Under the pieces are notes generated by a model. It was not told the DNA's origin. It worked only from the letters and a program-made list of their open reading frames with translations, and did no database searches. Shown here piece by piece: positions 11,739 to 58,976 of a stretch of DNA of 64,000 nucleotides. How positions within the stretch are numbered: the stretch's first letter is position 1; every line of letters begins with the position of its first letter. The translations under genes and the position numbers were made by a program. This DNA comes from an uncultured Acidobacteriaceae bacterium (GTDB lineage Bacteria > Acidobacteriota > Terriglobia > Terriglobales > Acidobacteriaceae): NCBI GenBank assembly GCA_963827415.1, contig CAWHBA010000021.1, forward strand, positions 163,288 through 227,287. Direction: 5' to 3'.

Positions 11739-11756
11739 TACCTTCGCAAAACAAAA

Positions 11757-12957: not shown

Positions 12958-12985
12958 CTCGCAACCATTCTCTCCAGCAAGCACA

Positions 12986-13013
12986 AACGGGACCCCCTTG
13001 GGGAGGTCCCGTT
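12986..13013. terminator. Strong GC hairpin downstream of pfkA; T-rich tail only on the minus strand
   Basis: AACGGGACC..(CCCTTGGGGA)..GGTCCCGTT. The minus-strand reading is followed by TTTGTGCTTGC. Confidence 0.5.
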
Positions 13014-13205: not shown

Positions 13206-13215
13206 CGTCAAACGC

Positions 13216-13440: not shown

Positions 13441-13599
13441 GCGTCCGCTCCGGCACTCTCGTAATCCCCAAAATATATCCGCGTCCTCCGACACAACGAT
13501 CCCGTCTACTCACTGTCGCTGCTTGCATCTTTCGCATCAAGCGGTTACAGCGACGGCCTCGCTCACTAAGCGCTTGGTATCCTGAAACCTGCCCTGCAA

Positions 13600-18983: not shown

Positions 18984-19054
18984 GACTCTATTCTCGCACT
19001 TTCCGCGCACCGAGGTTCTCGCAAGACCTGTTACTCTTACCCACAGCGGACCGA

Positions 19055-38535: not shown

Positions 38536-40015
38536 CTACTTGGTTGCAAGCCTTACGACAAGCGCCGATGAGGGAGGCACCAGCACCGTGGTCCTATCAT
38601 CCTTACACTCGGCCAGTTTGCTCCAGTGTCCATCCCATCCGCTTGGTGCAATAGCGGCGCCCCCAAAGGTAATTCCTTCTCGTGCCGTCAGGTTGGCTTG
38701 CGGCGCCTCGAGTGACATGCCTTCGGCTTCGCCCTTAATACCTGCCGCATGGAGGGTTACAGAGGCGCTTCTAGCCTGTGCTCCGTGCTCCTTGTTGATA
38801 AGGGTGACATAGATCTCATGGTCCGCGCGAACTGCGTACGCTGTGAGGTTGACGCCTTCGGTAGTGGAAATAGAGACCGAGTTTACGCGGCCCTGACTGC
38901 CTACATTGAATGCTTTGAAGGCGTATGCCTTCGGGTTGAAGCGGAAGGTTCCGTCCGGTGAGCGATAGATCGTGTCAGTGAAGATCCAGCTCTTGTTGTG
39001 GAAGTTGACGCCTGCAGCGCCGTGAGCTGCATGCCAGTGCAGATAATCCAATGCCCACAAGGCGGAGACAAAGGCGTTGCTCGCGCCGTCGACGCCTCCC
39101 GTATAGTCGTTGGCCTCGGTCATCCGGTAGGTGAGCCCCTCGCGTTCGACCGGCTCCAGGACGTGGTGGAAGAGCACATCGTATCGCTCTCTGGGCCAAG
39201 CTGCTGAAAGCATCGATTCGACTGCAGTGTCGACGCTGACGCCGGCAGCACTCTGGCCGGGGTAGTCGTGCTGAGTAACGAACAGCACACTGCCCGAACC
39301 CTTTTCATCGTGGGCGAATCGCTGCGTCCAGGACTGTCCGTCGAAGTCTGTGTTTTTTGTGCCGGGCACCGGGTAGTCCGAACCGGTGTCTGGACCGGTG
39401 AACTTTCGCTGCAGGCGCGCTTGCGTCGATTGCAGAGGCGAATTCCCGCCAGTCCTTAAGAAACGATGGATAGGCTGTGCCGGGAATCTCTGGCGACGTC
39501 TCTAAGATCCGAGGGTCGCGTTCGTGACCGGGTGATGTGTGGAACGAGTGCCAGTCCGGCTCGTTGCCGATCTGAAAGCAGACCAACTGCGAGGCGTAGC
39601 GTTGTTGGATGTACTGTGCAATGGCAGCATCCAGCCTCGCGTCTCCGTTCAACAGTCGGACGGTATAGATGACCTTTACGTCGGCTGCCTTCGCGAACGC
39701 GAATAGTTGATCAATGTCCGCTGGCCCAGGGATTTTGAACTCGGGACCGTCTGCTGTTCCTCCACCAACTCGCAGATTGCGAATTCCGATCGCCCGGAAG
39801 AGATCAACCAGCGGCTTGTTATCCGGACTGAACAGGTGGTTTCCCTGCTTGTCCGGATTCAGGTTTGAGGATTCAAAGCTGAGGCCGGCGAAGTCTTGTG
39901 GAATTGCGGGGCCAGGGTGGTCAGCGATTTCTACTGTGACACGCGATTGGGCCGAAGCGCACAGCACGGCAATAGAAAGCCAAACAGCGGCCAGGCAAAT
40001 CAGTTTCGGCTTCAC
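38536..40015 (-). pseudogene. GH79 (beta-glucuronidase/heparanase-like) glycoside hydrolase; one frameshift as sequenced
   Basis: GTG 40015 follows GAGGTG. Signal MKPKLICLAAVWLSIAVLCASAQS; ..VCFQIGNEPD.. and ..LTYRMTEANDYTGG... The frame changes at an A-run near 39405 (..SAPAAK / FTGPDTGSDYPVPGTKN..). Confidence 0.7.
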
Positions 40016-40048
40016 AAACACCTCTGAGAACGTAGGTCGCTCTTTGGC

Positions 40049-40072
40049 TGTCAATCTATCACAATTGATTAT
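40049..40072. promoter_or_regulatory. Shared 24-nt operator-like motif, copy 1
   Basis: The reverse complement reads ATAATCAATTGTGATAGATTGACA. Abuts the TTGTCA -35 of the plus-strand promoter. Confidence 0.45.
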
Positions 40073-40135: not shown

Positions 40136-41573
40136 ATGAGAGCACTCGCCGTCGACCTCGGAGGCACGCATATTGCCTACGGGGTCGTGGAAGATCGAAC
40201 ACTGGTCTGCACAGCGTCCGTTCCGAGTAGTTCCCTACTTCGATCCGGGCCCCTGGGGCGGGCACTGGATGGAGGAGGTCTGCGACCTGCCGAAGGATGC
40301 GCCAAATCATGCGTGGTGCTTCGATTGTGTACCCGAGGAGAACAGTCTTCTTTTAGGTTTCGGCGATCATCGGGTTGAAGTTCCAGCAATTGATCTCGTC
40401 TTCTTGCAACCGAAGGAGCTTCTTGGGGATGCTGTCCACGCGCGGTTTGGTACAGAGTTTCCTATCCGCTTCGACTTCCTCGACACAATGGGCGGAGGCA
40501 ATCTGTCGCTGCAAGTGCATCCGCTGACCGAATACATTCAGGACAAATTCGGAATGCATTACACGCAGGACGAGAGCTACTACATGCTGGATGCCAAGCC
40601 CGGGGCCTGCGTCTACCTCGGGCTGAAAGAGGGCGTTGACCAGCGAGCGATGGCGGACGACCTGCGTCGCGCACAAGCGGGCGGTCACGCGTTTCCTGCG
40701 GAGCAGTATGTCAACCAGTTCCCTGCTGAGAAACATGATCACTTTCTGATTCCGGCGGGAACCATACACTGCTCCGGCAAGGACAGCATGGTGCTCGGGA
40801 TTAGTGCAACGCCCTACATCTTCACGTTCAAACTTTGGGATTGGAATTGCCTAGGTCTTGATGGGCGACCGCGACCAATCCATCTCGACCACGGTCTGGC
40901 AAATATTCAGTGGGGCCGCCATCACGAAGGCAGCTCGCGGCATGAATCGCTATTTCGCAGGCGCTACCGCAAACCGATCGTTCTGGCGTTCCTCATCGCG
41001 GCTTTCAACCAGCTTTCGGGAATCAATGCCGTCCTCTACTACTTGAACGACATCTTTGTCTCGGCGGGGTTCAGCCGCGTCTCAGGCGCGGGACAGGCGG
41101 TGGTGATTGGTCTTGTGAACCTCGTTGCCACCCTCGTCGCGATGACTCTCATCGACAGATTAGGACGCCGAACGCTGTTGCTGATTGGCTGCGCGGGAAT
41201 GGTTCTCAATCTCGTCGGAATCAGCTTGATCTTTAGAACGGGGCACGGAACAAATAGACTCCTGTTCCTTGTGGCAGCTTACATCGCCTGCTTTGCGCTC
41301 TCGTCGGGCGCCGTCATCTGGGTGTACATGAGTGAGATCTTTCCCAACGAGGTACGAGTCCAGGGCCAGGCAATGGGAAGCACCGTGCTCTGGATTACGA
41401 ATGGGGTCATATCGCAACTGTTTCCGCTGTTTGCAGCGAAGTCGACATCGTTTCCGTTCGCTGTCTTCGCAGCGGTTATGGCGTTGCAGTTCGTCGTGAC
41501 GTTGATCTATTTCCCTGAGACGAAGGGGCTGTCTTTAGAACAATTGCAGTCAAAGTTGTCATTGCAGGCGTAA
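40136..41573 (+). pseudogene. Mosaic remnant: ROK-kinase 5' end + cupin-type mannose-6-P-isomerase-like body + C-terminal half of a sugar-porter MFS transporter
   Basis: MRALAVDLGGTHIAYGVVEDRTLV (ROK N-terminus) switches frame at ~40205-40225 to ..FRVVPYFDPGPWGGHW..NLSLQVHPL..IPAGTIHCSG.. (PMI-like). That body is joined in-frame at ~40915-40950 to ..RRRYRKPIVLAFLIAAFNQLSGINAVLYY..PNEVRVQGQ..FPETKGLSLEQ (sugar-porter TM7-12). Confidence 0.55.
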
Positions 41574-41610: not shown

Positions 41611-41656
41611 ATAATCAAGAGCAAGTTGACCTATAATCGTTTGTAATCGATTGACA
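41611..41656. promoter_or_regulatory. Shared operator-like motif, copy 2, plus a weaker adjacent copy
   Basis: 41633-41656 reads ATAATCGTTTGTAATCGATTGACA, preceded by 41611-41631 ATAATCAAGAGCAAGTTGACC. Confidence 0.45.
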
Positions 41657-41680
41657 CTCCACACCGCGGCTCAATATAGT
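41651..41680 (+). promoter_or_regulatory. Sigma70-like promoter candidate for the aldolase operon
   Basis: TTGACA (41651-41656), 18-nt spacer, TATAGT (41675-41680). Confidence 0.5.
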
Positions 41681-41740
41681 GGGCCTCGTTCCCTCGATAC
41701 GCCGCGCGAACATCCAAGACAACTCAGGAGACTCCTCGAA

Positions 41741-42742
41741 ATGAGAAACAAACTTACACCCGGAAAAGCTGCCGGGCTTAAGGCAGTAGCTGATAACCGT
41801 GGTGTTATTGCAGCGGCGGCGATGGACCAGAGAGGTCTGCTGAAGCAGATGCTGATCCGCGAGCTCGGCGGCAAGGAGCCCACCGACGAGATGATGTCCG
41901 AATTCAAGGAGATCGTGGCGCGCTCGCTGACGCTGCACGCGTCCTCCATTTTGCTCGACGTGCAGTATGGTTTGAAGGCGACCCACAACATCAACGGCAA
42001 GGGCCTGCTTCTCGCCTACGAACATGCGGGCTATAGCCCGGACAAGCCCGAGCGCCTGCCATCCGTCTCCGAGGGATGGTCTGCCCTTCGCCTCAAAGAG
42101 GCCGGCGCAGATGCAGTGAAGATTCTGGTCTACTACACGCCCTTTGAGAAGAAGTGGGTAAATGAGCAAAAGCATGCATGGGTGGAGCGTATTGGAGCGG
42201 AGTGCCGCGGAGCAGACATACCCTTATTCCTCGAGTTTCTGACCTACAGCGTCCACGGCGAGGATGAGAAGGGGCCGGAGTTTGCGCGGAGAAAGCCGGA
42301 GATCATCCTGGCCGGAATGGAAGAGTTTGCGAAAGAGCGCTACGGAGCCGATGTCCTCAAGGTCGATGTTCCCATCCAGATGGCCTACGTCGAAGGGACG
42401 AAGGCGTTCAAAGGCGATGCTGCCTACTCTCGCGAGGACGCAAAGAAACTCGTGCGCGAGTCCGCGGACAAGACTGACCTTCCCATCGTCTATCTCTCCG
42501 CTGGCGTGAGCAGCTCGGTGTTCATCGAAACATTGGAACTCGCGGCCGAGGCTGGCGTGGAGTTCCATGGAGTGCTCGCGGGGCGCGCGACCTGGCAGGA
42601 CGGAGTTCCGGTCTACGTAAAAGAGGGCCCCGAGGCACTGGAGCGCTGGATGAATACGCAGGGAGCGAAGAATATTGACAATATCAATAGTGCGCTGCGC
42701 CTTGCTCGTCCATGGACGGAAGCGCGGGCGTTCCGGGGCTAA
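41741..42742 (+). CDS. Class I ketose-bisphosphate aldolase of the LacD/YihT family
   Basis: ATG follows AGGAG. Closely parallels LacD as I recall it (..AMDQRG.LK.M.., ..SSILLD..YGL.., ..LLLAYE..GY.., ..DVLKV.VP.., ..YLSAGVS...F.ETL..A.EAG..F.GVL.GRATW). Confidence 0.75.
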   Translation: MRNKLTPGKAAGLKAVADNRGVIAAAAMDQRGLLKQMLIRELGGKEPTDEMMSEFKEIVARSLTLHASSILLDVQYGLKATHNINGKGLLLAYEHAGYSPDKPERLPSVSEGWSALRLKEAGADAVKILVYYTPFEKKWVNEQKHAWVERIGAECRGADIPLFLEFLTYSVHGEDEKGPEFARRKPEIILAGMEEFAKERYGADVLKVDVPIQMAYVEGTKAFKGDAAYSREDAKKLVRESADKTDLPIVYLSAGVSSSVFIETLELAAEAGVEFHGVLAGRATWQDGVPVYVKEGPEALERWMNTQGAKNIDNINSALRLARPWTEARAFRG

Positions 42743-42813
42743 GCGCTTCGCGCCAGCGTCGCATTGCCTGACAATCGGATGAAGACCGCTGGGGAACCTT
42801 CTTGTTAGAGACG

Positions 42814-44091
42814 ATGGAGCAGCATAAGGAGACGGCCGGCTCGATGGTGGAGCGGGCGATCCATCGTCGACGCTGGTGGATCCTCGGACTGCTCTTCTCG
42901 ATCACGGTCATCAACTTCATCGACCGACAGACGCTGTCCGTCCTGGCGCCTGTCATCTGCTCCGCCTTCCACCTGACGAACGTCGCGTACGGCCGCATCG
43001 TGGCTGCGCTGCAGTTCGGCATGATGTCCGGCGAGTTCCCGATGGGTTACCTGATGGACCGATGGGGCACGCGGCTGGGACTCTCCTTCGCTGTCATGTG
43101 GTGGTCCTCGGCCACGGCGGCCCAGGTGTTTGCCCGTACCGGGACCCAGTTCGGATTGATCCGGTACTGGATGGGAACAGGCGAGTGCGGGAACTTCTCA
43201 GGAGGCGTGAAGACTGCGACCCGGCTCTTTGCGCCCGCAGAGCGAACCCTCGCGATCGGCATCTTCAACGCCGGCAGCATGGTGGGAGCCACTGTGGCGC
43301 CTCCGCTGATCGTCTACCTGCTGCATCATTTCGGATTTCGTTCAGCGTTCCTTGTACCAGCAGCTCTGGGTTTCGTCTGGCTCATCGCATGGTGGTTCGT
43401 CTACCAGCGTGAAGCGCCGCCACGTGAGGAAACGCGACAGCCGCAGGCCTCCGTTCGCGAATTCCTCAGCGACTCTTCCTCATGGGCCGTAATGTCCTGC
43501 AGGTTCTTCGTGGGCCCAGTGATTCAGTTCTATTGGTACTGGATTCCGATGTATCTCTACACCGTGCGGCACATGTCGCTGACACAGGTGGGGTTTCTCA
43601 GCTGGATCCCGTTTCTCCTGGGCGATGGTGGGAACGTGTTCGGCGGATGGGCCGCGGGCGTTATGCTACGGCGCGGTATCTCCGCGCGAAACACGAGGCG
43701 GTGGCTGATGTACGGCAGCAGTGCCTTCTGCTTCGCGAGCTTCCTGGTTCCTTTCACACGCGGGAGCGGCATGGCGCTCGCCATCATCGGCGTTGCCGTC
43801 GCGGCACATAACTTCCTTTCCGCAAACATGTACGGCGCCATCACTGATCTCTTCCCGGACTCAAAGGTGGGCCGCGCCACAGGACTCACGGGAGTGGCCG
43901 GCGGTCTCAGCGGACTTCTCTTCCCGCTGCTTACCGGAGTATTGATTGATCGTTTCTCCTACAGCCCGGTCTTTGTACTGATTGCCATGATGCCTCTCGT
44001 GGGCACGCTTGCGCTCTTCACCCTCGGCAGAAAGTACCGCACACTGGGAACCAGCCAGCGTTCAAATGTTGCGGCACAGCAACAACTCTGA
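42814..44091 (+). CDS. MFS transporter, anion:cation symporter (ExuT/DgoT-like) family
   Basis: 12-TM-like hydrophobic ORF; ..WWILGLLFSITVINFIDRQTLSVLAP.., ..YLMDRWGTRLGL... Confidence 0.65.
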   Translation: MEQHKETAGSMVERAIHRRRWWILGLLFSITVINFIDRQTLSVLAPVICSAFHLTNVAYGRIVAALQFGMMSGEFPMGYLMDRWGTRLGLSFAVMWWSSATAAQVFARTGTQFGLIRYWMGTGECGNFSGGVKTATRLFAPAERTLAIGIFNAGSMVGATVAPPLIVYLLHHFGFRSAFLVPAALGFVWLIAWWFVYQREAPPREETRQPQASVREFLSDSSSWAVMSCRFFVGPVIQFYWYWIPMYLYTVRHMSLTQVGFLSWIPFLLGDGGNVFGGWAAGVMLRRGISARNTRRWLMYGSSAFCFASFLVPFTRGSGMALAIIGVAVAAHNFLSANMYGAITDLFPDSKVGRATGLTGVAGGLSGLLFPLLTGVLIDRFSYSPVFVLIAMMPLVGTLALFTLGRKYRTLGTSQRSNVAAQQQL

Positions 44092-44179
44092 AAGGACTCG
44101 ATGAGCGGCCTCTTGTTGCCAATGACTTTCGGTTCAACGACGTACTCATTCGGTGACATTCGTCCACAGACAACTTCAT

Positions 44180-44203
44180 TGACAATCAATCGCAATCGAT
44201 TAT
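44180..44203. promoter_or_regulatory. Shared operator-like motif, copy 3
   Basis: The reverse complement reads ATAATCGATTGCGATTGATTGTCA. Occupies the spacer after TTGACA (44179-44184), with TATATC at 44201-44206. Confidence 0.45.
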
Positions 44204-44233
44204 ATCGTTAGTCCGTTCCCAAAGAAGCCCAGG

Positions 44234-45430
44234 ATGAGCAGCTCTAATCTGATGATCGTGCAAGGTGGCGGCCCCACGGCGGTGTTTAATGCCAGCCTTG
44301 CAGAGATTGTCGCCGAAGGACAGCGCCAAGGCTCCATCTCGTCGATCTTCGGCTCGCGCTATGGGATCAAAGGCCTCATCGAGGACCAGATCGTCGACCT
44401 CAGCGGCATGTCGAAAACCGAACTCGACTTATTGAGCAGAACCCCTGGTGCAGCTCTCGGCTCCTCCCGCCACAATCCCAGCAAAGAGGACATGCAGAGG
44501 TTGGCGGATGCGCTGGTACACCTCAAGGTTGACCACTTGCTTTTTCTGGGCGGCAACGGCACGATGCGGGGCGCCGAGATCGTCAGCGAATACTGCGCTT
44601 CGCAGGGGATGGACATTCGAGTCGTCGGGGTCCCCAAGACGATCGACAACGACATCGCGGCAACCGACCGCTGCCCGGGCTATGCCAGCGCCGCGCGATA
44701 TATAGCAACCTCCACGCGCGAACTTGCAGCCGACGTGCGCTCCCTTCCCCAGCCGATCACGATTCTTGAGACCATGGGACGCTCCGTCGGATGGATTGCC
44801 GCCGCTGCATCTCTCGCGCGCACAGATGCCGACAGCGCTCCGCACCTGGTCTACGTTCCAGAGGTTCCGTTCGAGACGGAGGAGTTCCTTTCGGACCTCA
44901 GCAGTGTCGTCGATCGTCTGGGATGGGCGGTCGTCGTCGTCGCAGAGGGCATCCGTCATGCCGATGGAAGACCTGTCTACGAGGCTCGCGACCCATCGCA
45001 GTCGGATCCGCTCAAGCGACCTATGATTGGCGGCGTTGCTCAACACCTCGCAACCATCGTGGGTGAGCGGCTTGGCCTCCGCTGCCGCAGTGAAAAGCCT
45101 GGGCTGCTCGGACGCGCTTCCATCGCATGTGCTGCGGAGCAGGACTTCGAAGATGCGGCTCTGGTTGGACGGACTGGGGTGCAGGCGCTCGTCTCGGGCA
45201 AAACCAATGTGATGGTCTCTCTCGAGCCACTTGGGTCAGCATCCAGCACAAGACTCGTTCCGCTCAATGATGCGGCCGGTCATGAGCGCACAATTCCGAG
45301 CGAATGGTTACAGGGCGGTCCGCTGCCCGTCGCCCAGCCGTTCTTTGACTACATCCGTCCACTCGTTGGGCCAATCGAGGAACACATAATAGATATCGGC
45401 ACGACCGTTCAAGGAATAGGAGCAAGGTAG
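44234..45430 (+). CDS. Phosphofructokinase-family sugar-phosphate kinase, non-canonical (PPi-PFK-like motifs)
   Basis: ..MIVQGGGPTAVFNASL.., ..LLFLGGNGTMRGA.., ..VGVPKTIDNDI.., ..ETMGRSVGWIAA... Differs from pfkA (11920), which has the GGGDCPGLNA form. Confidence 0.65.
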   Translation: MSSSNLMIVQGGGPTAVFNASLAEIVAEGQRQGSISSIFGSRYGIKGLIEDQIVDLSGMSKTELDLLSRTPGAALGSSRHNPSKEDMQRLADALVHLKVDHLLFLGGNGTMRGAEIVSEYCASQGMDIRVVGVPKTIDNDIAATDRCPGYASAARYIATSTRELAADVRSLPQPITILETMGRSVGWIAAAASLARTDADSAPHLVYVPEVPFETEEFLSDLSSVVDRLGWAVVVVAEGIRHADGRPVYEARDPSQSDPLKRPMIGGVAQHLATIVGERLGLRCRSEKPGLLGRASIACAAEQDFEDAALVGRTGVQALVSGKTNVMVSLEPLGSASSTRLVPLNDAAGHERTIPSEWLQGGPLPVAQPFFDYIRPLVGPIEEHIIDIGTTVQGIGAR

Positions 45431-45432
45431 AG

Positions 45433-46806
45433 ATGGAAACGCAACAGGCAACGTCGCAGGCTCCAGTGGGTGTGCTGATCTTCGGCCGCAAGCGCCCGGG
45501 CTTCGACCAGGATTGGAACGCTGAGATACGCGAGCGCTGCCGCAAGTCGCTGGCTCAGCTTGGATCCACATGCATCGGCGCCGAGGAAGTTGTTCTCGAT
45601 GATGACGCCGTAAACGGCGCTCTGGACCGAATTGCAAAGGCGGGTTGTCTTTCGCTGATTGTGATTCAGCCATCTCTCGCTGACGGCCAGTACGCTCTGA
45701 CTGTCAGCCAGCGCTGGAGCGGTCCCGTGATTCTCTGGGCGACACCAGAACGCCCTGGCGACGGCAAAGTAAGCTCCTGTTCCCTCGTCGGTCAGCACCT
45801 CTGGGCCTCCATTCTTCGACAGGCAAATCATCCGTTCGAATTCGTCTATGGTGCCCCGGAGGATGTCCAGGCCGAATTGCGCCAGGCTATTGCGCTCTCT
45901 GAAACCGTTGAACGCCTGCGTACAGCCAAGCTGGGCGTCGTCGGTACGCATGCGCCCGGATTCCTCGATCTTGCGGCTGATCCTTTCCTCATTCGCCAGA
46001 CCTTTGGATTGCAGTTGCATCCGCTCAGCCTTCCTCAGTTCATCGACCGCGTGCAGGCCATTCCGGCAGATGAGGTCAATGCGGACCTTCAGCGCGTACA
46101 CTCGCTGGGACTGCGCGAGACCGGAAGCACTTCGGCGCCTGCCGATGAGTTGCTTTCCGTCAATTCGCGTTATTACCTCTCCGTGCAGAGCTTGATGCGT
46201 GAGGCTAATCTGGACGCACTCTCGTTGCAGTGCTGGCCGGAGCTGCCGAACGTTCTCGGCCAATGGCCTTACTTTGCCGTCTCGCGTCTTGGAGCCGAGG
46301 GGAAAGCGGTCTCCATCGAAGGCGATGTTGATGGTGCAATCAGTGCCCTTATCGGTCGTTTCGTCGGGATCGGGCCGGGTTTCCTCACGGACTGGCTTGA
46401 GCATGACGCGGACACTATCTTCTTCTGGCATCCGGGCATGGCACCTCTTGATATGTGCAACGCCACTGGGTGCGAGGACGCGCCCACGCTCGGCGGCCAT
46501 TTCAATGGTGCGCGCCCTTTCGTGGTCGACGGTCAATTGCAACTGGCCGGGGATGTCACCGTCTCGCGCCTCTGGCGTTGCGACGGCCGGTACCATTGGA
46601 CGGCATTTGAAGGCCGCTCCATCCCGCCGCGGCGCTCCGTTACTGGCAACAGCCTGCTGGTCGAGGTCGATGGCGGTAAGGTTCCGGAGCGCTTCGAACG
46701 CCTCGTCCATGCCGGTCTGCCGCACCACGTGACGCTGCACTTTGGCCGCCACGCAGAGACGTTCCGCCGGCTTGCCCGCGCTCTTGATATCGATTGGGAG
46801 CAATGA
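45433..46806 (+). CDS. FucI/AraA-superfamily sugar (aldose-ketose) isomerase-like protein
   Basis: 457-aa intact ORF. Layout and motifs (..LIVIQPSLADG.., ..KLGVVGTHAPGF.D.., ..SLQCWPEL.., ..SIEGDVDGAISALI.., ..HVTLHFG) recall L-fucose/L-arabinose isomerase-like proteins. Family call from memory. Confidence 0.45.
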   Translation: METQQATSQAPVGVLIFGRKRPGFDQDWNAEIRERCRKSLAQLGSTCIGAEEVVLDDDAVNGALDRIAKAGCLSLIVIQPSLADGQYALTVSQRWSGPVILWATPERPGDGKVSSCSLVGQHLWASILRQANHPFEFVYGAPEDVQAELRQAIALSETVERLRTAKLGVVGTHAPGFLDLAADPFLIRQTFGLQLHPLSLPQFIDRVQAIPADEVNADLQRVHSLGLRETGSTSAPADELLSVNSRYYLSVQSLMREANLDALSLQCWPELPNVLGQWPYFAVSRLGAEGKAVSIEGDVDGAISALIGRFVGIGPGFLTDWLEHDADTIFFWHPGMAPLDMCNATGCEDAPTLGGHFNGARPFVVDGQLQLAGDVTVSRLWRCDGRYHWTAFEGRSIPPRRSVTGNSLLVEVDGGKVPERFERLVHAGLPHHVTLHFGRHAETFRRLARALDIDWEQ

Positions 46807-46836
46807 AAACAGATGAGTTAACCACAACCTGAACGG

Positions 46837-46858
46837 TTGACAGTTTACAATCTATTAC
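46837..46858. promoter_or_regulatory. Shared operator-like motif, copy 4 (3 nt shorter)
   Basis: The plus strand reads TTGACAGTTTACAATCTATTAC. The reverse complement GTAATAGATTGTAAACTGTCAA aligns to the other copies. Confidence 0.35.
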
Positions 46859-46902
46859 TGCTCTACAACGATTTAGATGGCCGACTTTGCGAGGTGAAGC
46901 AG

Positions 46903-47568
46903 ATGCCTAGAAACGCAACGAAAACACGAGTGGCACGGCATGACATCCGGGAAGAGATCCAACGCAGAATCCTTTCCGGAGAGAGCAAGCCAGGAGAGCG
47001 GCTTAGTCAGCAGAGCCTGGCTCGCGAACTTGGCGTCGCCCAAGGCACGGTGCGCGAGTCTCTTCTTGAACTGCAGTGGCTGGGCCTCGTCGAGTCCATC
47101 GATCGCCTTGGTGTCTTCGTGGACAAACTGGATGTCGGCCGCATCTGCGAGGCATACCAGTTACGCGAGGTTCTCGAAGGCCTGGCTGCGCGATTGGCCT
47201 GTAACAACGCAGGCCGCGCAGACATCGCCGAGCTCCGGTCAATGGCTGATCAGATTTATCGCATGGCACAGGACGATGACACGGAGACCGCATCCATCGA
47301 CCGCCGGTTCCATCTGCGAATCACGGAGCTCGCACGCAACAACACACTCATGCGACTCTCGCAAACTTATCGTGCGCTAGGCATGACCGTTCGGGCCTAT
47401 CGCGAACCGGCCATTATTCATGCCGAGCATCTTCGCATCGTAGAGGCCATCGAGCACAACTTTGCCGAAGAGGCTGAGCGCCAGGCCCGCTATCACGTTG
47501 TAGGCGCCCGCGAGATGATTGAGTCGCTCGCGCAGCAGGGCAAGTTTATTCCGGAGTGGGTGAAGTAG
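46903..47568 (+). CDS. GntR-family regulator with FCD (FadR C-terminal) domain
   Basis: ATG follows GAGGTG. ..GERLSQQSLARELGVAQGTVRESLLELQWLGLVESI.. wHTH, then an all-helical C-domain. Its stop directly abuts the next ATG. Confidence 0.8.
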   Translation: MPRNATKTRVARHDIREEIQRRILSGESKPGERLSQQSLARELGVAQGTVRESLLELQWLGLVESIDRLGVFVDKLDVGRICEAYQLREVLEGLAARLACNNAGRADIAELRSMADQIYRMAQDDDTETASIDRRFHLRITELARNNTLMRLSQTYRALGMTVRAYREPAIIHAEHLRIVEAIEHNFAEEAERQARYHVVGAREMIESLAQQGKFIPEWVK

Positions 47569-49047
47569 ATGTCGACGACCGTTCTTGATGAGAAATCCGG
47601 ACCGTCGCAGGGTGCACAGCATCCGTACGGCTCGTATATCGCCGGCGAGTGGGTCCATACGAAGGAACAGCTTCAGGTCACCGATCCTTCCAGCGGAAAG
47701 GCATTCGCTAAGGTCTCGTCGATTCAACGGGAACATGTAACGACAGCTCTTACAGTCGCGGAAAAGGCATTCAGCGAATGGCGGCAGTTCTCTGCCCTCG
47801 AACGCGGAAATCTCTTGCGCAAGGTCGCGGACGAACTCATCCGCAGACGGCCGGAGATCGCCCGAACGATCACCCTCGAAAACGGCAAGCCCCTCGCCCA
47901 AAGCGAAGGTGAAGTTGCGATGTCGGCAGATCACTTGTACTGGTTTGCCGAAGAGGCCCGTCGCGTCTACGGCCGCAGCATTCCCAATCAGGTCAAGGGC
48001 AAGCGTCACATGATCGTCAAGACGCCGATCGGTGTCGTGGGCGCCATCGCACCCTGGAACTTTCCTCTCGTTCTTTCTGTGCGCAAGGTCGCTCCGGCCA
48101 TGGCGGCTGGATGCCCCGTCATCCTGAAGCCTGCCTCGCAGACGCCTCTCTCCGCCATACATCTGGCGGAGTGTATGCAGGCTGCTGGGGTTCCCGCCGG
48201 TGTATTTCAACTGGTGATCGGCGATGCCGCGATGATCTCGTCGACATTCCTCGCCAGTCCGATCTGTCGCAAGGTGAGCTTCACTGGATCGACGCAAGTT
48301 GGACGTCTTCTTATCCGGGGCGCCGCCGAGACGATCAAACCGCTCTGCCTCGAGCTCGGCGGACTCGCCCCGGTACTTGTCTTCGAGGACTGCGACCTGG
48401 ACGTGGCCGTGCGGGAGACGATCATCGCGAAGTTTCGCAATACAGGCCAATCGTGCATCGCAGCCAACAGAATCTACGTCCAGAAGAGCATCCATAAAGA
48501 GTTCACGGAGCGATTCTGCGCAGCGGTGGCACGGCTCAAAACTGGTCCGGGCCTCGAAGCCGGAATGGACGTGGGACCGCTGATCAATGAGTCTGGCGTT
48601 CAGGCTGCACTCCAGCAGGTTGAAGACGCGGTGAGCAAGGGCGCGCGCCTTCTCGCCGGAGGAAAGCGCATTGAACATCTCGCCGGTTTCTTTCTGGAAC
48701 CTACCGTGCTCGATGAAGTTCCTGACGCTGCTGCGTGCATGTGCGAAGAGACATTTGCCCCCATTGCACCGATCTCCACCTTTGAAACCGAAGAGGAGGT
48801 CCTCGAGCGTGCCAACAGTTCAGCGTACGGCCTGAGCGCCTACGCGATGACTCGCGATCTCAACCGAATGTTACGGCTCGGCGAAAAGCTCGAAGCCGGC
48901 ACACTCGGCATCAACGACGGTGCCCCAACTGTAAGCACCTCTCCCTTCGGAGGAGTCAAGCAAAGCGGATGGGGCCGGGAACTTGGAATCGAAGGGCTTG
49001 AAGCATTTCTCGAAACAAAACACATCTCCATCGGTAATTTCGCCTGA
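47569..49047 (+). CDS. NAD(P)+-dependent aldehyde dehydrogenase (GabD/KGSADH-like)
   Basis: 492 aa; ..GVVGAIAPWNFP.., ..VSFTGSTQVG.., ..LELGG.AP.., ..GQSCIAANR.., ..PFGGVKQSGWGRE... Confidence 0.8.
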   Translation: MSTTVLDEKSGPSQGAQHPYGSYIAGEWVHTKEQLQVTDPSSGKAFAKVSSIQREHVTTALTVAEKAFSEWRQFSALERGNLLRKVADELIRRRPEIARTITLENGKPLAQSEGEVAMSADHLYWFAEEARRVYGRSIPNQVKGKRHMIVKTPIGVVGAIAPWNFPLVLSVRKVAPAMAAGCPVILKPASQTPLSAIHLAECMQAAGVPAGVFQLVIGDAAMISSTFLASPICRKVSFTGSTQVGRLLIRGAAETIKPLCLELGGLAPVLVFEDCDLDVAVRETIIAKFRNTGQSCIAANRIYVQKSIHKEFTERFCAAVARLKTGPGLEAGMDVGPLINESGVQAALQQVEDAVSKGARLLAGGKRIEHLAGFFLEPTVLDEVPDAAACMCEETFAPIAPISTFETEEEVLERANSSAYGLSAYAMTRDLNRMLRLGEKLEAGTLGINDGAPTVSTSPFGGVKQSGWGRELGIEGLEAFLETKHISIGNFA

Positions 49048-49072
49048 TGGACTCAGCCAGAAGGAGAAGTAG

Positions 49073-49354
49073 ATGATTCACTTTCTTGTCCATGACGCCG
49101 CGGACAACGTTGGCGTTGCGGTTGTCGATCTTGAACCGGGCACCGAGTGCGTTGGGAGAAATCTCGCGGACAACTCTACGCTGAAGGCTCGCGCCGAACA
49201 GTCCATTCCACTTGGACACAAACTTGCACTGAAAGACTTTGCCATCGGCGACACCGCGATCAAGTATGGCTGCGAGATCGGCCGCATCGTTCAGCCCGTC
49301 AAGGCCGGACAACATGTGCACACACAGAATCTGAAGACGAAGAGGTGGGCGTAG
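49073..49354 (+). CDS. SAF-domain small subunit of a split UxaA-family enzyme (SuyA-like)
   Basis: 93 aa; ..[17 protein letters not shown].., ..[24 protein letters not shown]...[11 protein letters not shown]... Confidence 0.7.
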
Positions 49355-49356
49355 TT

Positions 49357-50520
49357 ATGAAGAAGCGGACAGTACTCGGTTACAGGCGCGAGAACGGACG
49401 CGTCGGCGTGCGCAATCACGTCATCATCCTTCCCGTAGACGACATCTCCAATGCGGCATGCGAAGCAGTCGCCAACAACATCAAGGGAACGCTCGCACTT
49501 CCCCACGCCTACGGCCGTCTGCAGTTCGGCGAAGACCTCGACCTGCATTTCCGCACGATGATCGGCACGGGCAGCAATCCGAACGTCGCGGCGGTCGTGG
49601 TCATCGGCATCGAGTCTGGCTGGACGCAGCGCATCGTCGATGGCATCGCGAAGACCGGAAAGCCAGTGAAGGGCTTCTCGATCGAAGGCAAGGGAGACAT
49701 TCAGACCATCGCCGAGGCCTCGCGCCAGGCGAAGGAATATGTCCAGTGGGCCTCCGAACTGCAACGCACCGAATGCGGGCTCGAAGAGCTTTACATCAGC
49801 GTGAAGTGCGGAGAGTCCGACACGACGACCGGCCTCTCGAGCTGCCCAACAGTAGGAAACGTCATCGACAAGCATTGCGCGGTCGGTGGGACGGCCTCCT
49901 TCGGCGAGACGAGTGAACTCACCGGCGCCGAGCACATCGTCGCATCCAAGGCCGCCAATGACGAGGTCCGCAAAGAGTTCTTTGAGGCCTTCGAAGACTA
50001 CACAAAACTTGTGTTTGACCAGAAGACGAATGATCTCTCCGAGTCACAGCCGACCAAAGGGAACATCGCCGGCGGTCTCACTACGATCGAAGAGAAGGCA
50101 CTGGGTAACGTTGAGAAGCTCGGCAAGAAGACAAAGTTTGTCGGCTGCCTTAAGCCGGCCGTTGCTCCCGACAAGCCGGGCCTTTGGTTCATGGATACGT
50201 CCAGTGCGGCCGCAGAAGCTGTCACGCTTTGGGCTGCCTCCGGTGCTGTCGTTCACCTCTTCCCCACGGGCCAGGGCAACGTGATTGGCAATCCGATCGA
50301 GCCAGTTATCAAGCTCAGCGGCAATCCAAAGACCGTCAAGTACATGTCCGAGCATATCGATCTCGATGTGTCGAAGATTCTCCAGGGAGAGATGACGCTC
50401 GATGAGGCTGGCGATGCTCTGCTGGATGTCATCGTGCGCACCGCAAACGGCCGCCTTACTGCTGCCGAGGCGCTTGGCCATCGTGAGTTTGTCATGACCA
50501 AGCTCTACCGCAGCGCGTAA
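49357..50520 (+). CDS. UxaA-family large (catalytic) subunit (SuyB-like / altronate-dehydratase-like)
   Basis: 387 aa from ATG 49357; ..[20 protein letters not shown].., ..[18 protein letters not shown].., ..[12 protein letters not shown].., ..[19 protein letters not shown]... Confidence 0.7.
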
Positions 50521-50540
50521 CGGGCCTGAGCAATCGAGCA

Positions 50541-51608
50541 ATGAAACGATTTCTACCGTCTTACTTGCAGCAAATTACAGCTCGACTAGCTGAACACGTC
50601 GGCGTCTCACCCGAGGACGCGGAGATCTTCGCCCACGCCCTCGTGGACGCCGACGTGCACGGCACCTCCACGCACGGAGTCTCACGGCTCAATATCTATC
50701 TTGAACGGATCAGCAAGGGCCTCATCAGCCCGAGCGCAAAGCTGGCCGTCGACCGGGCGCATGGCAGCGTGCTCGCGCTGGACGCCTGCAACGGTCTGGG
50801 GCAGGTGCAGGCGATGAAAGCGCTCCAACTGCTCATGCCCCTTGCAAAGACAAACGGCGTCGCGGCGGCCACCATCCGCAACTCGCAACACTTCGGCGCG
50901 GTTTCTTATTACTGCAACTACGCCGCCGAGCACGGAATGATTTTGCTCGCGATGACAAACTGCGAGCCGGCGATGTCTCCCACCGGTGGTTATGAACCAT
51001 TCTTCGGAACCAATCCAATCGCAGCCTCATTCCCCCGCAAAGATGGGCCGCCGGTAAAGGTAGATCTGGCTACTTCGATTGTTGCCAGGGGAAACATCAT
51101 CGCTGCCAACAAGAAAAAAGAGTCGATACCGGAAGGGTGGGCTCTGAGCAGGACCGGAGAACCAACGACGGACGCGGCGGAAGCTCTACTCGGGACCGTT
51201 CAAACGATGGCCGGACACAAGGGCTACGCGTTGGCTCTCATGGTCGAGGTTCTCAGTGGTGTTCTATCAGGTGCGGCCATAGGCTCCGATATCGGCTCGA
51301 TGTACAAGAACCTCGATCGCAAGCAGGATGTTGGGCATTTCTTCTGCCTCTTCGACATCGCGGCGTTCATGGATGAGAGCGTGTTTGACGATCGCATGAG
51401 TTGGATGGTGGATCGCCTGAAGTCTAATAAGCTGCGCCCCGGCGCCGACGAGATTTTGATTCCGGGAGAGCGTTCAGCGCGTGCGGCTACTAAAAACGAA
51501 TGCAACGGAGTTGTCCTCGGCCCGGAAACCGTTGTCGAACTTGAGAAATGGTGTAAGCACTTTGGCATCTCCTTCGATGCCGATGGGACCGGTGGGATAA
51601 ATGGCTGA
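50541..51608 (+). CDS. Ldh_2-family (malate/L-lactate/sulfolactate dehydrogenase-type) oxidoreductase (ComC-like)
   Basis: 355 aa; ..DVHGTSTHGVSRL..Y.., ..NSQHFGA..YY.., ..FGTNPIA..FP.., ..MAGHKGYALALMVE... Confidence 0.7.
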   Translation: MKRFLPSYLQQITARLAEHVGVSPEDAEIFAHALVDADVHGTSTHGVSRLNIYLERISKGLISPSAKLAVDRAHGSVLALDACNGLGQVQAMKALQLLMPLAKTNGVAAATIRNSQHFGAVSYYCNYAAEHGMILLAMTNCEPAMSPTGGYEPFFGTNPIAASFPRKDGPPVKVDLATSIVARGNIIAANKKKESIPEGWALSRTGEPTTDAAEALLGTVQTMAGHKGYALALMVEVLSGVLSGAAIGSDIGSMYKNLDRKQDVGHFFCLFDIAAFMDESVFDDRMSWMVDRLKSNKLRPGADEILIPGERSARAATKNECNGVVLGPETVVELEKWCKHFGISFDADGTGGING

Positions 51609-52584
51609 AATTCTGATCTCGGAAAATATTCGAGGCAACGCAGTGGATTCACTCGCGAAGCGCTTTAACGTGGTGACTATGCCGGAGCTCTGGCGCGATC
51701 CTGCGGCACTCGCCAAGGAGATCGCGGGCGCGAGAGCTCTGATTATCCGGAATCAGACGCAGATTACCGATGATCTGCTTTGCGGCGCCAAGAATCTGGT
51801 CGTCCTCGGCCGCGCTGGTGTCGGTCTCGACAATGTCGATCTCAAAGCTTGCGAAAAAGCTGGCATCATCGTAACGTCCACGCCGGAGCAGAGCTCGATC
51901 AGCGTCGCTGAATTGGCAATTGGGCTGATGATCTCCCTCGCACGACAGATCCCCGCGGCGGACGCCGACACAAAGCAAGGCAACTGGAACCGTCAGCGTT
52001 TCTCTGGCACCGAACTGCACGGCAAGACATTCGGCATCATTGGGGCCGGCAGGATCGGCCTCGCGACTGCACGCAGAGCACAGGCCTTCGGTATGAAGAT
52101 CCTGGCATACGATCCGTTCGTCAGTCGCGACAACGTGTTTCTCGCCGAGTTGAACGCCGAGGTTGTCGCCTTCGAAGACGTGCTCGCGCGCGCTGACGTT
52201 ATCTCGTGCCATCTGCCCGCGACAGCGCAGACATTGCAAATCATCAATGCCAGTGCGTTCGCACGCATGAAGCCAACTGCCCTTTTCATCAACACCTCAC
52301 GCGGTGAGGTCGTAGATGAAGCCGCTCTTGTCGATGCACTCAAATCGAACACAATTGCGGGCGCTGCGCTCGATGTGCGCGAGACGGAACCTCCCGTCGC
52401 GGGCGAACTTGAAAAATTACCTAATGTTCTGTTGATGCCGCATATAGCCGCGCTCACCCGTGAGGCCCAGGCACGCGTGACGCGGGCAATCTGCGAAGAT
52501 GTCGCTCGTGTTCTCGATGGCCAGCCACCCTTGAACGCGGTACTTGTGCCACAGGTCTCAAGGAACGGATCCAAGAAGAGCTAA
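51601..52584 (+). CDS. D-isomer-specific 2-hydroxyacid dehydrogenase (PGDH-like)
   Basis: 327 aa; ..GKTFGIIGAGRIGLATARRAQAFGMKILAYDP.., ..NTSRGEVVDE.AL.., ..AALDV...EP.., ..PHIAA.T. ATG overlaps the previous stop. Confidence 0.75.
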   Translation: MAEILISENIRGNAVDSLAKRFNVVTMPELWRDPAALAKEIAGARALIIRNQTQITDDLLCGAKNLVVLGRAGVGLDNVDLKACEKAGIIVTSTPEQSSISVAELAIGLMISLARQIPAADADTKQGNWNRQRFSGTELHGKTFGIIGAGRIGLATARRAQAFGMKILAYDPFVSRDNVFLAELNAEVVAFEDVLARADVISCHLPATAQTLQIINASAFARMKPTALFINTSRGEVVDEAALVDALKSNTIAGAALDVRETEPPVAGELEKLPNVLLMPHIAALTREAQARVTRAICEDVARVLDGQPPLNAVLVPQVSRNGSKKS

Positions 52585-58600: not shown

Positions 58601-58976
58601 TAAGTTCTTCTCCGGCACGGCGACCTATTCCACGACCTTCACGGTGACGGCCTCTGCGCTTCGCGCCAAACGCCTGTTCCTACATCTCGATGATGTCCGC
58701 GACATCGCGCAGATCAGAATCAACGGCAAGACCGCTGGACTCACCTGGGCGCCCCCCTACGACGTCGACGTCACCGACACACTCCACTCAGGTTCCAACA
58801 AACTCGAGATTGCCGTAACGAATGAATGGACGAACCGTATTATCGGTGATCGCAGCTTGCCCGCGAATCAGCGCGTCCTTCCGGGCGTACCACCCGCCCG
58901 CTTCGGGCCACCACCCACGCTGCCCGAATCCGGGATCAACGGCAATGTCACGTTGCTGAGTGAAGTCCTTCCATAA
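55613..58976 (+). pseudogene. GH106-like glycoside hydrolase (alpha-L-rhamnosidase family), three frameshifts as sequenced
   Basis: ..FKNPPDSARPRTWWHWTNGNVTETGITKDLEWMKRVGIGGFQL... Switches at ~56659, ~58148 and 58465-58490. The true segment ..WIHRHLSDGDAYFVANQSDQPAHIEVRLRATGSNVQIWRPMDGS..ESAFVVL.. is out of frame inside an ORF that stays open. Confidence 0.55.

Follow-up and report, generated by a model that had tools for sequence, protein, structure and literature searches.

The 64,000-nucleotide stretch of DNA examined in this study (the window; contig CAWHBA010000021.1 of assembly GCA_963827415.1, positions 163,288 to 227,287 of the forward strand) comes from an uncultured soil Acidobacteriaceae bacterium, and between 41.6 and 52.6 kb it carries a cluster of ten co-directional open reading frames (ORFs) on the + strand, with intergenic gaps of -8 to 142 bp. 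This cluster is probably a pair of operons for 'extended' sulfoglycolysis, which would enable the complete mineralisation of sulfoquinovose (SQ) by a route of the sulfo-EMP (sulfo-Embden-Meyerhof-Parnas) type. In the proposed pathway, an anion:cation symporter (ACS)-type permease of the major facilitator superfamily (MFS) would import the anionic sugar, an AraA/FucI-fold isomerase would convert SQ to 6-deoxy-6-sulfofructose (SF), an atypical phosphofructokinase (PFK)-family enzyme would phosphorylate SF at C1 to give SF 1-phosphate (SFP), and a LacD-clade Schiff-base aldolase would cleave SFP to dihydroxyacetone phosphate (DHAP) and (S)-sulfolactaldehyde (SLA). A GabD-type dehydrogenase would then convert (S)-SLA to (S)-sulfolactate (SL), an SlcC-type D-2-hydroxyacid dehydrogenase (2-HADH) and a ComC-type Ldh_2 dehydrogenase would invert (S)- to (R)-SL via sulfopyruvate, and SuyAB would eliminate sulfite from (R)-SL, leaving pyruvate. 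A preliminary description of this DNA had suggested the same sequence of intermediates, which is still the best-supported reading, firm in the clade of SuyB and drawn from context at the sugar end. It is built on gene content, family and clade placement, synteny and a shared operator-like motif, all observed here, from which we infer every substrate, the phosphoryl donor, the effector of the regulator and the fate of the sulfite.

Families were assigned to the window ORFs by Pfam and NCBIfam profile searches, with scores quoted against model cutoffs (Table 1). All ten ORFs previously listed for 41611-52584 were recovered on the + strand, and the family named for each was borne out by these searches, with an AlphaFold model added for the isomerase. 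The genes had earlier been divided into three co-directional units; from promoter-like sites in the two larger gaps they are read here as two putative transcription units instead, the aldolase-MFS pair and the kinase gene through the 2-HADH gene. NCBI family names for the cluster proteins include tagatose-bisphosphate aldolase, pyrophosphate-dependent PFK (PPi-PFK) and UxaA family hydrolase. Conservation was assessed from relatives of the isomerase, which occur in 312 GTDB species genomes; the best 80 (53-93% identity) supplied the related loci, examined to 10 kb on either side, and counts out of 51 refer to those loci longer than 20 kb.

Table 1. Predicted genes of the cluster and promoter-like sites preceding its two units (positions in the window)
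Feature	Position	Strand	Family and profile evidence
Promoter-like site TTGACA-18-TATAGT (aldolase-MFS unit)	41651-41680	+	sigma-70-like; overlapped by AATCGATT at 41645-41652
Class I (Schiff-base) aldolase, LacD clade	41741-42742	+	PF01791; PRK12858 406 bits (cutoff 184)
Anion:cation-symporter-type MFS permease	42802-44091	+	MFS_1; TIGR00893 (D-galactonate/ACS-type) 185 bits, best match
Promoter-like site TTGACA-18-TATCGT (kinase-to-SlcC unit)	44179-44208	+	sigma-70-like; AATCGATT at 44194-44201, within the spacer
PFK-family 1-phosphotransferase	44234-45430	+	PF00365; NF010675 (diphosphate-F6P 1-phosphotransferase subfamily) 396 bits (cutoff 273)
AraA/FucI-fold aldose-ketose isomerase, 457 aa	45433-46806	+	no Pfam; SftI model 168 bits (cutoff 700)
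GntR/FCD regulator	46837-47568	+	Pfam GntR and FCD
Aldehyde dehydrogenase, SSADH/GabD-like	47569-49047	+	Aldedh
SuyA, small SAF subunit, 93 aa	49073-49354	+	SAF 23.9 bits
SuyB, large subunit, 387 aa	49357-50520	+	GD_AH_second and GD_AH_C (PF04295/PF20629)
Ldh_2-family dehydrogenase (proposed ComC type)	50541-51608	+	PF02615
D-2-hydroxyacid dehydrogenase (proposed SlcC type)	51601-52584	+	PF00389/PF02826

The lower half of the cluster very likely encodes the module that leads from SLA through SL to pyruvate and sulfite. The SAF protein and the large PF04295/PF20629 protein are encoded 2 bp apart, and their sizes fit the two-subunit make-up of SuyAB (approximately 80-105 aa plus approximately 390 aa). 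A tblastn search of 72,556 plasmids with the 387-aa protein returned 13 records at 63-71% identity, with all others at 40% or below. Identity was 68.7% to the protein of Cupriavidus pinatubonensis, 70.5% to that of Paracoccus versutus and 70.5% to that of Methylobacterium oryzae (range 68.7-70.9%), compared to at most 40% for any other split UxaA protein and 28-30% for E. coli UxaA and GarD; the relatives at or below 40% occur in sugar-acid contexts (a 2-keto-3-deoxygluconate permease, a non-phosphorylative fucose pathway and haloarchaeal sugar clusters). Neighbour-joining analysis grouped the four proteins from SuyB contexts with the window protein and its Edaphobacter orthologue in a single clade (bootstrap 100/100). 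This placement, at 69-71% identity to studied SuyB proteins, upholds the earlier assignment of the split UxaA-family pair to SuyAB, and the small subunit is likewise 48-53% identical to SuyA of Methylobacterium, Cupriavidus and Paracoccus.

The genes surrounding these relatives belong to sulfonate metabolism in several cases. In C. pinatubonensis, the genes ahead of the split pair are hpsN, hpsO, one for an MFS protein and one annotated as galactitol-1-phosphate 5-dehydrogenase; with the pair they look like the published genes for degradation of 2,3-dihydroxypropanesulfonate (HpsN, HpsO, HpsP, SuyAB). On plasmid pTAV3 of P. versutus the pair lies between a GntR gene and a putative sulfate exporter, with a sulfite oxidase gene approximately 8 kb downstream, and in M. 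oryzae it is accompanied by TauE, a 2-HADH homologue, an Ldh-family gene, GntR, a molybdopterin oxidoreductase and a sulfate exporter. Reviews attribute C-S cleavage in P. pantotrophus and C. pinatubonensis to SuyAB. The families validated for Chromohalobacter salexigens (supplementary tables of the Paracoccus wurundjeri study, PMC12421959) are PF00389/PF02826 for SlcC, PF02615 for ComC and PF20629/PF04295 for SuyB, with none for SuyA, and the family make-up of 49073-52584 is identical to this validated SuyA/SuyB/SlcC/ComC set of C. salexigens and P. wurundjeri.

The two dehydrogenases of the module also have counterparts beside SuyAB elsewhere: the Ldh_2 protein is 35-39% identical to the Ldh-family genes of Rhodococcus and Methylobacterium, and the 2-HADH protein is 40-43% identical to the corresponding genes of Methylobacterium and Rhodococcus. 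Therefore, the trio of SuyAB and the SlcC- and ComC-type dehydrogenases travels together in three phyla, and both dehydrogenases are present in 48 of the 51 long loci. The Ldh_2 protein matches L-sulfolactate dehydrogenase of Methanocaldococcus jannaschii (PDB 2X06) at 204 bits, its third-best PDB match; it scores 259 bits against the curated L-sulfolactate dehydrogenase model NF040650 (cutoff 500) and 254 bits against a ureidoglycolate dehydrogenase model. Its earlier description as a ComC-family member holds at the level of the family shared with validated ComC, although it misses the NF040650 cutoff. SLA and SL derived from SQ have the (S) configuration, whereas SuyAB acts on the (R) form, and two dehydrogenases invert one to the other via sulfopyruvate; the stereochemistry of the SlcC/ComC/SuyAB assignment fits SQ-derived (S)-SL. 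The sulfolactate module itself is already known for the phylum, since suyAB, comC and slcC were annotated in the acidobacterial peat metagenome-assembled genome SbA5 by Hausmann et al. (2018), where sulfoquinovose is unmentioned; SbA5 is one of the related loci examined in this study (L062).

The aldehyde dehydrogenase (ALDH) encoded upstream of SuyAB is proposed to be the SLA dehydrogenase that would yield (S)-SL. It matches PDB 8C54, whose residue numbering corresponds to that of the Rhizobium SLA dehydrogenase RlGabD, at 439 bits, and its Trp-Asn-Phe, Arg172, Arg290 and Cys296 align with Trp162-Asn163-Phe164, Arg171, Arg289 and Cys295 of RlGabD. The protein lies in the GabD clade of characterised SLA dehydrogenases, with the Arg pair kept; true succinate-semialdehyde dehydrogenases (SSADH) have the same residues, so the match is compatible with an SLA dehydrogenase but does not discriminate between the two activities. 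The ALDH is also 42% identical to the one encoded beside SuyAB in Rhodococcus koreensis.

At the sugar end, the isomerase is proposed to be an AraA/FucI-fold member of the SqvD/SftI superfamily that converts SQ to SF, a function suggested by its family and by the context of its relatives. SftI, a sulfoquinovose isomerase, is its only real curated NCBIfam relative. The AlphaFold model (pLDDT 91) superimposes on L-arabinose isomerases with a TM score of 0.83 and on FucI and other L-fucose isomerases with 0.76; therefore, the earlier 'FucI/AraA-like' label is correct. Glu296, Asp320, His333 and His431 are invariant among orthologues and resemble what we take to be the metal-ligand pattern of AraA. 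A search of 1.84 billion representatives found one close cluster (65%), then a group at 32-41% and then many relatives at 25-30% identity, and scores against the SftI model were higher for the more distant relatives, the highest (250-360 bits) being those of representatives approximately 27-30% identical to the window isomerase.

Six members of the sister group of the isomerase (32-49% identity) were inspected for their genomic context. In Spirochaeta africana, the isomerase gene occurs with an ATP-binding cassette (ABC) transporter, a ROK regulator, a split transketolase, an RpiB-type isomerase, an ALDH, an ADP-forming CoA ligase, a sulfate-symporter-family protein and TauE, an arrangement that corresponds to the sulfo-transketolase (sulfo-TK) cluster variant described in a review (PMC9594981). 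A second genome of the sister clade has a sulfo-TK-like set plus a small transaldolase and an iron-containing alcohol dehydrogenase (a combined transaldolase and transketolase cluster), and on a spirochaete-like contig the isomerase adjoins a class II aldolase. The fourth locus (L101; ENA ERZ25071726, positions 1572-13697 of a 509-kb metagenomic contig) encodes, in order, ALDH, SuyA, SuyB, GntR, 2-HADH, Ldh_2, a solute-binding protein, a PFK with the motif GGNGT, the isomerase and a glycoside hydrolase (GH) of family GH31, with SuyB 68% and the isomerase 49% identical to those of the window and with no aldolase within 10 kb. Its GH31 protein (778 aa) passes the NCBI equivalog model for YihQ (801 bits versus 553) and keeps Gln288, Trp304, Asp405, Asp472 and Tyr508 of E. 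coli YihQ, so that in this locus a glycosidase of the YihQ family accompanies the combination of kinase, isomerase and SuyAB seen in the window. In another locus (L102), the isomerase has a ROK regulator and an ABC transporter as neighbours, with a gene for the N-terminal part of a transketolase at the locus edge, which is weakly suggestive, and the context of a Planctomycetota locus (L097) was uninformative. These sulfo-TK, sulfo-transaldolase (sulfo-TAL) and GH31/SuyAB contexts show that members of the isomerase clade recur within SQ pathways.

The kinase, proposed here to be a sulfofructose kinase, was aligned with E. coli PfkA, whose numbering is used, and with 65 orthologues. In place of the Gly-Gly-Asp-Gly of PfkA, it has a GGNG[ST] motif that is invariant in the orthologues (Asp103 replaced by Asn, Gly at position 104), and it has Lys at position 124. 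Arg72, Thr125, Asp127, Asp129, Arg171, Glu222, Arg243 and Arg252 are kept (Arg243 in 64 of 65, with one His), while Arg162 is replaced by Pro and His249 by Leu in all 65; in PfkA we take these two residues to be contacts of the 6-phosphate group of fructose 6-phosphate (F6P). The best PDB relatives, 3K2Q and 3HNO, were both deposited as PPi-PFK. Asp104 together with Lys124 is the signature of PPi-PFK, and the 'PPi-PFK-like motifs' reported earlier are consequently only partly present: Lys124 is there and the NF010675 cutoff is passed, but positions 103 and 104 are Asn and Gly. A second, housekeeping-type PFK at 11860-12957 (+; PF00365, 345 bits) has the canonical PPi-type GGDD and Lys124 and keeps Arg162, His249, Arg243 and Arg252. 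Judged by its residue changes relative to this enzyme, the cluster kinase would be a specialised paralogue with a remodelled distal-anion site, as expected if the 6-substituent were a sulfonate. The GGNG[ST] variant recurs beside SqvD-like isomerases in L101 and in a plasmid of Ca. Chlorohelix allophototropha (Chloroflexota; L099, NZ_CP128401.1, 4631-20480), where a GGNGS PFK and the isomerase share a cluster with an SSADH-like ALDH, sulfite reductase and siroheme synthesis genes, an ABC transporter, a Gfo/Idh/MocA gene with a TIM barrel, a PGDH-like dehydrogenase and a gene annotated as threonine synthase. This plasmid cluster has no SuyAB and may have a different desulfonation end.

The aldolase is proposed, from context, to be the SFP aldolase that would give DHAP and SLA. 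It is 49.7% identical to LacD.2 of Streptococcus pyogenes (311 bits) and 24.4% identical to E. coli YihT (41 bits), in agreement with the preliminary description, which had placed it nearer LacD than YihT. It passes only the broad PRK12858 model, failing the LacD equivalog TIGR01232 (308 versus 432) as well as PRK12399 and PRK04161, and plasmid searches with it returned only lac-operon LacD proteins at less than 50% identity. In YihT, Lys193 is the Schiff-base residue and Arg253 binds both phosphate and sulfonate; Lys207 and Arg282 of the window aldolase align with these, and LacD.2 has the two residues as well. The aldolase has neither LacAB nor LacC among its neighbours. The adjacent MFS permease, which is proposed to import the anionic sulfosugar, is 25% identical to E. 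coli ExuT without a match to YihO or YihP, and an MFS gene lies within 10 kb in 39 of the 51 long loci.

Conservation of gene neighbourhoods, which the preliminary description had named as a check, indicates that the cluster is maintained as a unit. All seven core enzymes (kinase, isomerase, ALDH, SuyA, SuyB, Ldh_2 and 2-HADH) occur in 44 of the 51 long loci, mostly in the order seen in the window; 30 of these 44 have the aldolase within 10 kb, and 28 have both the aldolase and the MFS gene. The order of the core genes is fixed, and the aldolase-MFS pair is mobile, being found upstream, divergent or downstream. Such an arrangement is not due to chance. Nearly all carriers of the best 80 isomerase relatives belong to the Terriglobales (Acidobacteriaceae, Granulicella, Edaphobacter, Terracidiphilus and Bryocella), with a few Bryobacteraceae and one member of the Tepidisphaeraceae.

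The two units also appear to be tied together by a shared operator-like motif. The window contains just two copies of the palindrome AATCGATT, one per cluster promoter. In related loci, the kinase gene has the extended consensus TTGACAATCGATnnnnAATCGATTATAg upstream of it in 31 of 71 cases and the aldolase gene in 18 of 38, and cluster-internal genes never do; in these relatives (loci L009-L088) a tandem ATCGAT motif is found inside a TTGACA...TATAg promoter upstream of the kinase or aldolase gene, with 112 copies in 1.42 Mb. The GntR/FCD regulator gene is present in 34 of the 51 long loci. The AATCGATT-containing palindrome is thus the putative operator of the GntR/FCD protein at both promoters, both of which this protein probably represses.

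Several observations weigh against a sulfo-EMP route from SQ. In 17 of the 51 long loci there is no aldolase within 10 kb, the window aldolase is approximately 50% identical to a bona fide tagatose-bisphosphate aldolase and only 24% identical to YihT, and 12 related loci have a transaldolase gene just upstream of the kinase gene. The kinase has Asn in place of the Mg-binding Asp103, the isomerase falls far under the SftI cutoff (168 versus 700 bits), and the GH31 protein of L101 has Gln at the sulfonate-binding Arg301 of YihQ. The neighbours of the cluster in the window are genes of families GH39, GH79, GH106 and CE15 (carbohydrate esterase) for plant glycans rather than sulfolipid genes. Furthermore, neither a sulfoquinovosidase of family GH31 or GH188 nor a TauE/SuyZ exporter or a sulfite dehydrogenase was found within 10 kb of the cluster, in the window or in the 80 related loci. 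The preliminary description had already listed the lack of a GH31 sulfoquinovosidase, a sulfite exporter and a sulfite dehydrogenase for the window, and these gaps now extend to all 80 loci. Pfam scans of the window ORFs revealed no GH31, and the window likewise showed neither TauE nor a sulfite dehydrogenase; tblastn searches with E. coli YihQ, YihR, YihS, YihU, YihV and YihO, and with TauE, SuyZ-like and SorA-like proteins from L005, gave no match in the related loci, and blastp comparison of the ten cluster proteins with E. coli YihS, YihV, YihO, YihP and YihU gave none either.

There is a slim chance that the lower pathway is as proposed and that the sugar is sulfofucose (6-deoxy-6-sulfo-D-galactose, the C4 epimer of SQ) or another 6-sulfo-hexose, processed via sulfotagatose and sulfotagatose-1-phosphate. 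A LacD-clade aldolase suits a route of the tagatose-bisphosphate type, the fold of the isomerase is nearest to L-arabinose isomerase, and GH42 and GH2 genes of beta-galactosidase families flank the cluster in 7 and 6 loci, respectively. L-arabinose isomerases are known to turn D-galactose into D-tagatose. However, LacD enzymes are known not to discriminate C3/C4 stereochemistry, so the clade of the aldolase does not fix the sugar, and the sulfo-TK, sulfo-TAL and YihQ-family contexts in which relatives of the isomerase occur are those of SQ pathways. Sulfofucose is also rare (Fucaceae algae and Thermoplasma glycans), whereas the carriers of the cluster are abundant soil and peat Terriglobales. 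An EMP-like route through sulfotagatose was hypothesised for Paracoccus wurundjeri and not found there (PMC12421959).

Equally improbable in our estimate is a route of the sulfo-transaldolase type, in which a transaldolase, encoded within the cluster in some genomes and elsewhere in this one, would split SF to SLA and F6P, and the PFK-family enzyme and the aldolase would act on F6P and fructose 1,6-bisphosphate to replenish triose phosphates. A TalAB-type transaldolase (TIGR00874, 406 bits, cutoff 396) is encoded directly upstream of the kinase in 12 of the 80 loci (L038, L039, L041, L043, L044, L050, L051, L053, L054, L059, L060 and L088, from Terracidiphilus sp. or unclassified Acidobacteriaceae/Acidobacteriota), most of which also have a gene with a 3-keto-disaccharide-hydrolase domain and a TIM-barrel gene. 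SqvD-type isomerases partner transaldolases in published sulfo-TAL pathways (PMC9594981), and the aldolase resembles an ordinary bisphosphate aldolase. This route is rated lower than the sulfo-EMP route because neither the window cluster nor most related loci contain a transaldolase, and because the altered site of the kinase, which has lost two 6-phosphate contacts of PfkA, is invariant even in the transaldolase-bearing loci. In addition, the genome already has a housekeeping PFK, and the aldolase-MFS unit appears to be co-regulated with the core via the shared operator-like motif. The 12 transaldolase loci may represent a variant in which the pathway is bifurcated between EMP and transaldolase branches.

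It is very improbable that no sulfonate pathway is present at all, i.e., that the genes encode a tagatose/galactose-type or uronate/sugar-acid route with a sugar-acid dehydratase, or two unrelated neighbouring operons, as the surrounding plant-glycan hydrolases, the NCBI family names and an MFS permease nearest to hexuronate and galactonate transporters might suggest, given that SuyB lies in the clade of studied SuyB proteins and far from UxaA, GarD and the split sugar-acid dehydratases, that its SlcC/ComC partners are kept beside it across phyla, that one conserved unit joins the kinase-isomerase pair to ALDH-SuyAB, and that the flanking hydrolases are poorly kept with the cluster (0-7 related loci each). 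Two specific forms were considered and rejected. A uronate or sugar-acid pathway, prompted by the ACS-type MFS, GH79, CE15 and GH106, fails on the SuyB clade and the unconserved hydrolases, and also because cleavage of fructuronate- or tagaturonate-1-phosphate would give tartronate semialdehyde and leave the lyase without a role. A 6-deoxy-sugar pathway (rhamnose or fucose to lactaldehyde to lactate), prompted by the adjacent GH106, was rejected because a UxaA-type enzyme would find no beta leaving group in lactate and because none of the 80 related loci contains GH106.

The proposed sulfo-EMP cluster can be compared to several described systems. It differs from the Yih pathway in that the cluster has no YihS (PF07221), YihV (PF00294) or GH31 YihQ. 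Sulfo-EMP2 of Bacillus (Alkalicoccus) urumqiensis uses SqvD, SqiK (PF00365) and the class II aldolase SqiA (Liu et al. 2021, reviewed in PMC9594981), and the window cluster would share its intermediates, and shares the replacement of YihS and YihV by a FucI/AraA-fold isomerase and a PF00365 kinase, and a GabD/SlaB-type SLA dehydrogenase. The earlier characterisation of the enzyme families as non-canonical is therefore accurate in that they are not YihS and YihV, but a FucI-like SqvD and a PF00365 SqiK already define the published sulfo-EMP2. Unlike sulfo-EMP2, the window has a class I PF01791 aldolase of the LacD clade and no PF01116 gene (the family of SqiA), has a divergent isomerase branch, lacks an SqvB mutarotase and YihQ, extends into SuyAB/SlcC/ComC and belongs to Acidobacteriota rather than Firmicutes; the kinase, a member of the PRK14072 subfamily with the motif GGNGT, is likened to SqiK at the level of the PF00365 family only. 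Hybrid EMP1/2 clusters with a class I PF01791 aldolase have been reported from Proteobacteria and Actinobacteria, with no acidobacterial member in the survey (PMC10665668). These show the same Pfam-level mosaic of PF01791 aldolase, PF00365 kinase and FucI-like isomerase, but their class I aldolases are of the YihT type, whereas the window aldolase is 24% identical to YihT and 50% to LacD.2.

Isozymes are interchanged among sulfoglycolysis pathways, and extended sulfo-TAL clusters with SuyAB are known from Thermotogae and Chloroflexi (PMC9594981), while a tandem pathway of sulfofucose Entner-Doudoroff and SlcC/ComC-SuyAB reactions was demonstrated experimentally in P. wurundjeri (PMC12421959). 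As in these extended pathways, the window would couple sugar cleavage to the conversion of SLA to SL, racemisation and SuyAB-dependent release of pyruvate and sulfite, with use of all six carbons; in contrast to them, its upper pathway is of the EMP type (kinase and aldolase), with neither a transaldolase nor Entner-Doudoroff enzymes, and TauE and a sulfite dehydrogenase are unlinked. The suggestion that desulfonation is complete within one organism is supported, but the association of SuyAB with sulfoglycolysis is already published for sulfo-TAL and P. wurundjeri. The sulfolactate modules of C. salexigens, P. pantotrophus and C. pinatubonensis comprise the same four families with split SuyA/SuyB, but the window differs in its order (SuyA-SuyB-ComC-SlcC), its position inside a sugar-catabolic operon and the lack of SuyZ/TauE and of a tripartite tricarboxylate transporter or ABC importer for sulfolactate. 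Finally, the tagatose-6-phosphate (Lac) pathway has a similar isomerase-kinase-aldolase logic and a LacD-family Schiff-base aldolase (approximately 47-50% identity to Firmicutes LacD), but the window lacks LacAB (RpiB-type), LacC (PfkB-type) and a phosphotransferase system, and its partner enzymes would form SLA, SL and sulfite. Full-text literature searches found no paper tying Acidobacteria to SQ catabolism. In light of the published pathways, the cluster would therefore represent a pathway of a known kind in a novel combination and in a phylum new to it, and three of its enzyme lineages (kinase, aldolase and isomerase) are uncharacterised for the proposed steps.

Genes neighbouring the cluster vary among related loci and include xylose-isomerase-like TIM barrels (19 and 13 loci), an M24 peptidase-like protein (15), a TonB-type outer-membrane barrel (14), a protein with a 3-keto-disaccharide hydrolase domain (12), a Gfo/Idh/MocA oxidoreductase (8) and glycosidases of families GH42 (7), GH2 (6) and GH79 (5). 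Candidates for release of SQ from its glycosides are the set of Gfo/Idh/MocA, xylose-isomerase-like TIM-barrel and 3-keto-disaccharide-hydrolase genes, or DUF5054 and GH79. The Gfo/Idh/MocA protein was considered as an SqgA (GH188) sulfoquinovosidase and rejected, as it scores only 30-35 bits to SqgA (8QC2/8QC3); its best PDB matches, 8TDF and 8TDH (85-87 bits), were deposited only as dehydrogenases, and in NCBIfam it scores best against the model for BT_2158 glycoside 3-dehydrogenase (117 bits against a cutoff of 750). The DUF5054 protein (704 aa; 36382-38496, -) has no PDB or NCBIfam relative and is linked to the cluster in seven loci (L010-L014, L018 and L074) as well as in the window and in Edaphobacter acidisoli (L001), often beside GH79, making it a candidate glycosidase for the pathway substrate. 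In seven loci (L038, L039, L042, L043, L050, L053 and L088), a fusion of MFS, acyltransferase and AMP-binding domains of approximately 1200 aa is encoded two to three genes upstream of the kinase; it is of the Aas/LplT-like lysolipid re-acylation type, and a link to sulfolipid turnover is pure speculation.

Several other features of the window were observed. The GH106 gene at 55613-58976 (+) consists of two overlapping ORFs (385 and 767 aa), the GH79 gene at 38536-40054 (-) of two ORFs (277 and 249 aa) that correspond to a single 494-aa ORF in L010, and a sugar-porter MFS gene at 40173-41573 (+) matches its family in the C-terminal half only; these three genes are probably split or frameshifted and could be pseudogenes or assembly errors. 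Between 7000 and 26000 the + strand has a pronounced and sharply bounded excess of C (GC skew -0.19 to -0.32, compared to an absolute skew below 0.13 elsewhere); at third codon positions, + genes show a skew of -0.44 to -0.58 and - genes, read on their coding strand, one of +0.41 to +0.56; with opposite signs in the two sets, the bias follows the DNA strand rather than transcription. Within this region, a hopanoid/squalene-type set at 14819-19160 (-) comprises genes for an amine oxidase and an SQS_PSY protein together with a 758-aa ORF that combines, in one frame, zinc-dependent alcohol dehydrogenase domains and a second SQS_PSY domain; this ORF is either a fusion or a run-through of ORF calling. 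An ORF at 4570-5655 (-) matches the central part of the portal protein of a P22-like phage (246 bits; positions 124-418 of the 594 in the profile), pointing to the remnant of a prophage close to where the window begins.

SQ output is approximately 10 Pg per year, much of it reaching soil in plant litter, and the known SQ degraders are Proteobacteria, Firmicutes, Actinobacteria and members of a few other phyla, most of which excrete a C3 sulfonate for use by others. It is rather unlikely that Terriglobales as a group are unrecognised complete mineralisers of SQ that employ a GGNG[ST] PFK, possibly PPi-driven like the housekeeping PFK of the genome, a LacD-clade aldolase and a divergent SqvD together with a means of SQ release outside GH31 and GH188. 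Since cultured species such as E. acidisoli carry the cluster, tests in culture are feasible. If the proposed pathway is correct, the GGNG[ST] kinase, the LacD-clade aldolase and the putative AATCGATT operator would provide new signatures for annotating metagenomes, and the cluster could be a source of sulfite for DsrAB-carrying peat Acidobacteria, for which a link to sulfolactate was proposed in 2018. A dominant soil phylum would thereby enter the organosulfur cycle, with the cluster present in dozens to hundreds of Terriglobales species genomes.

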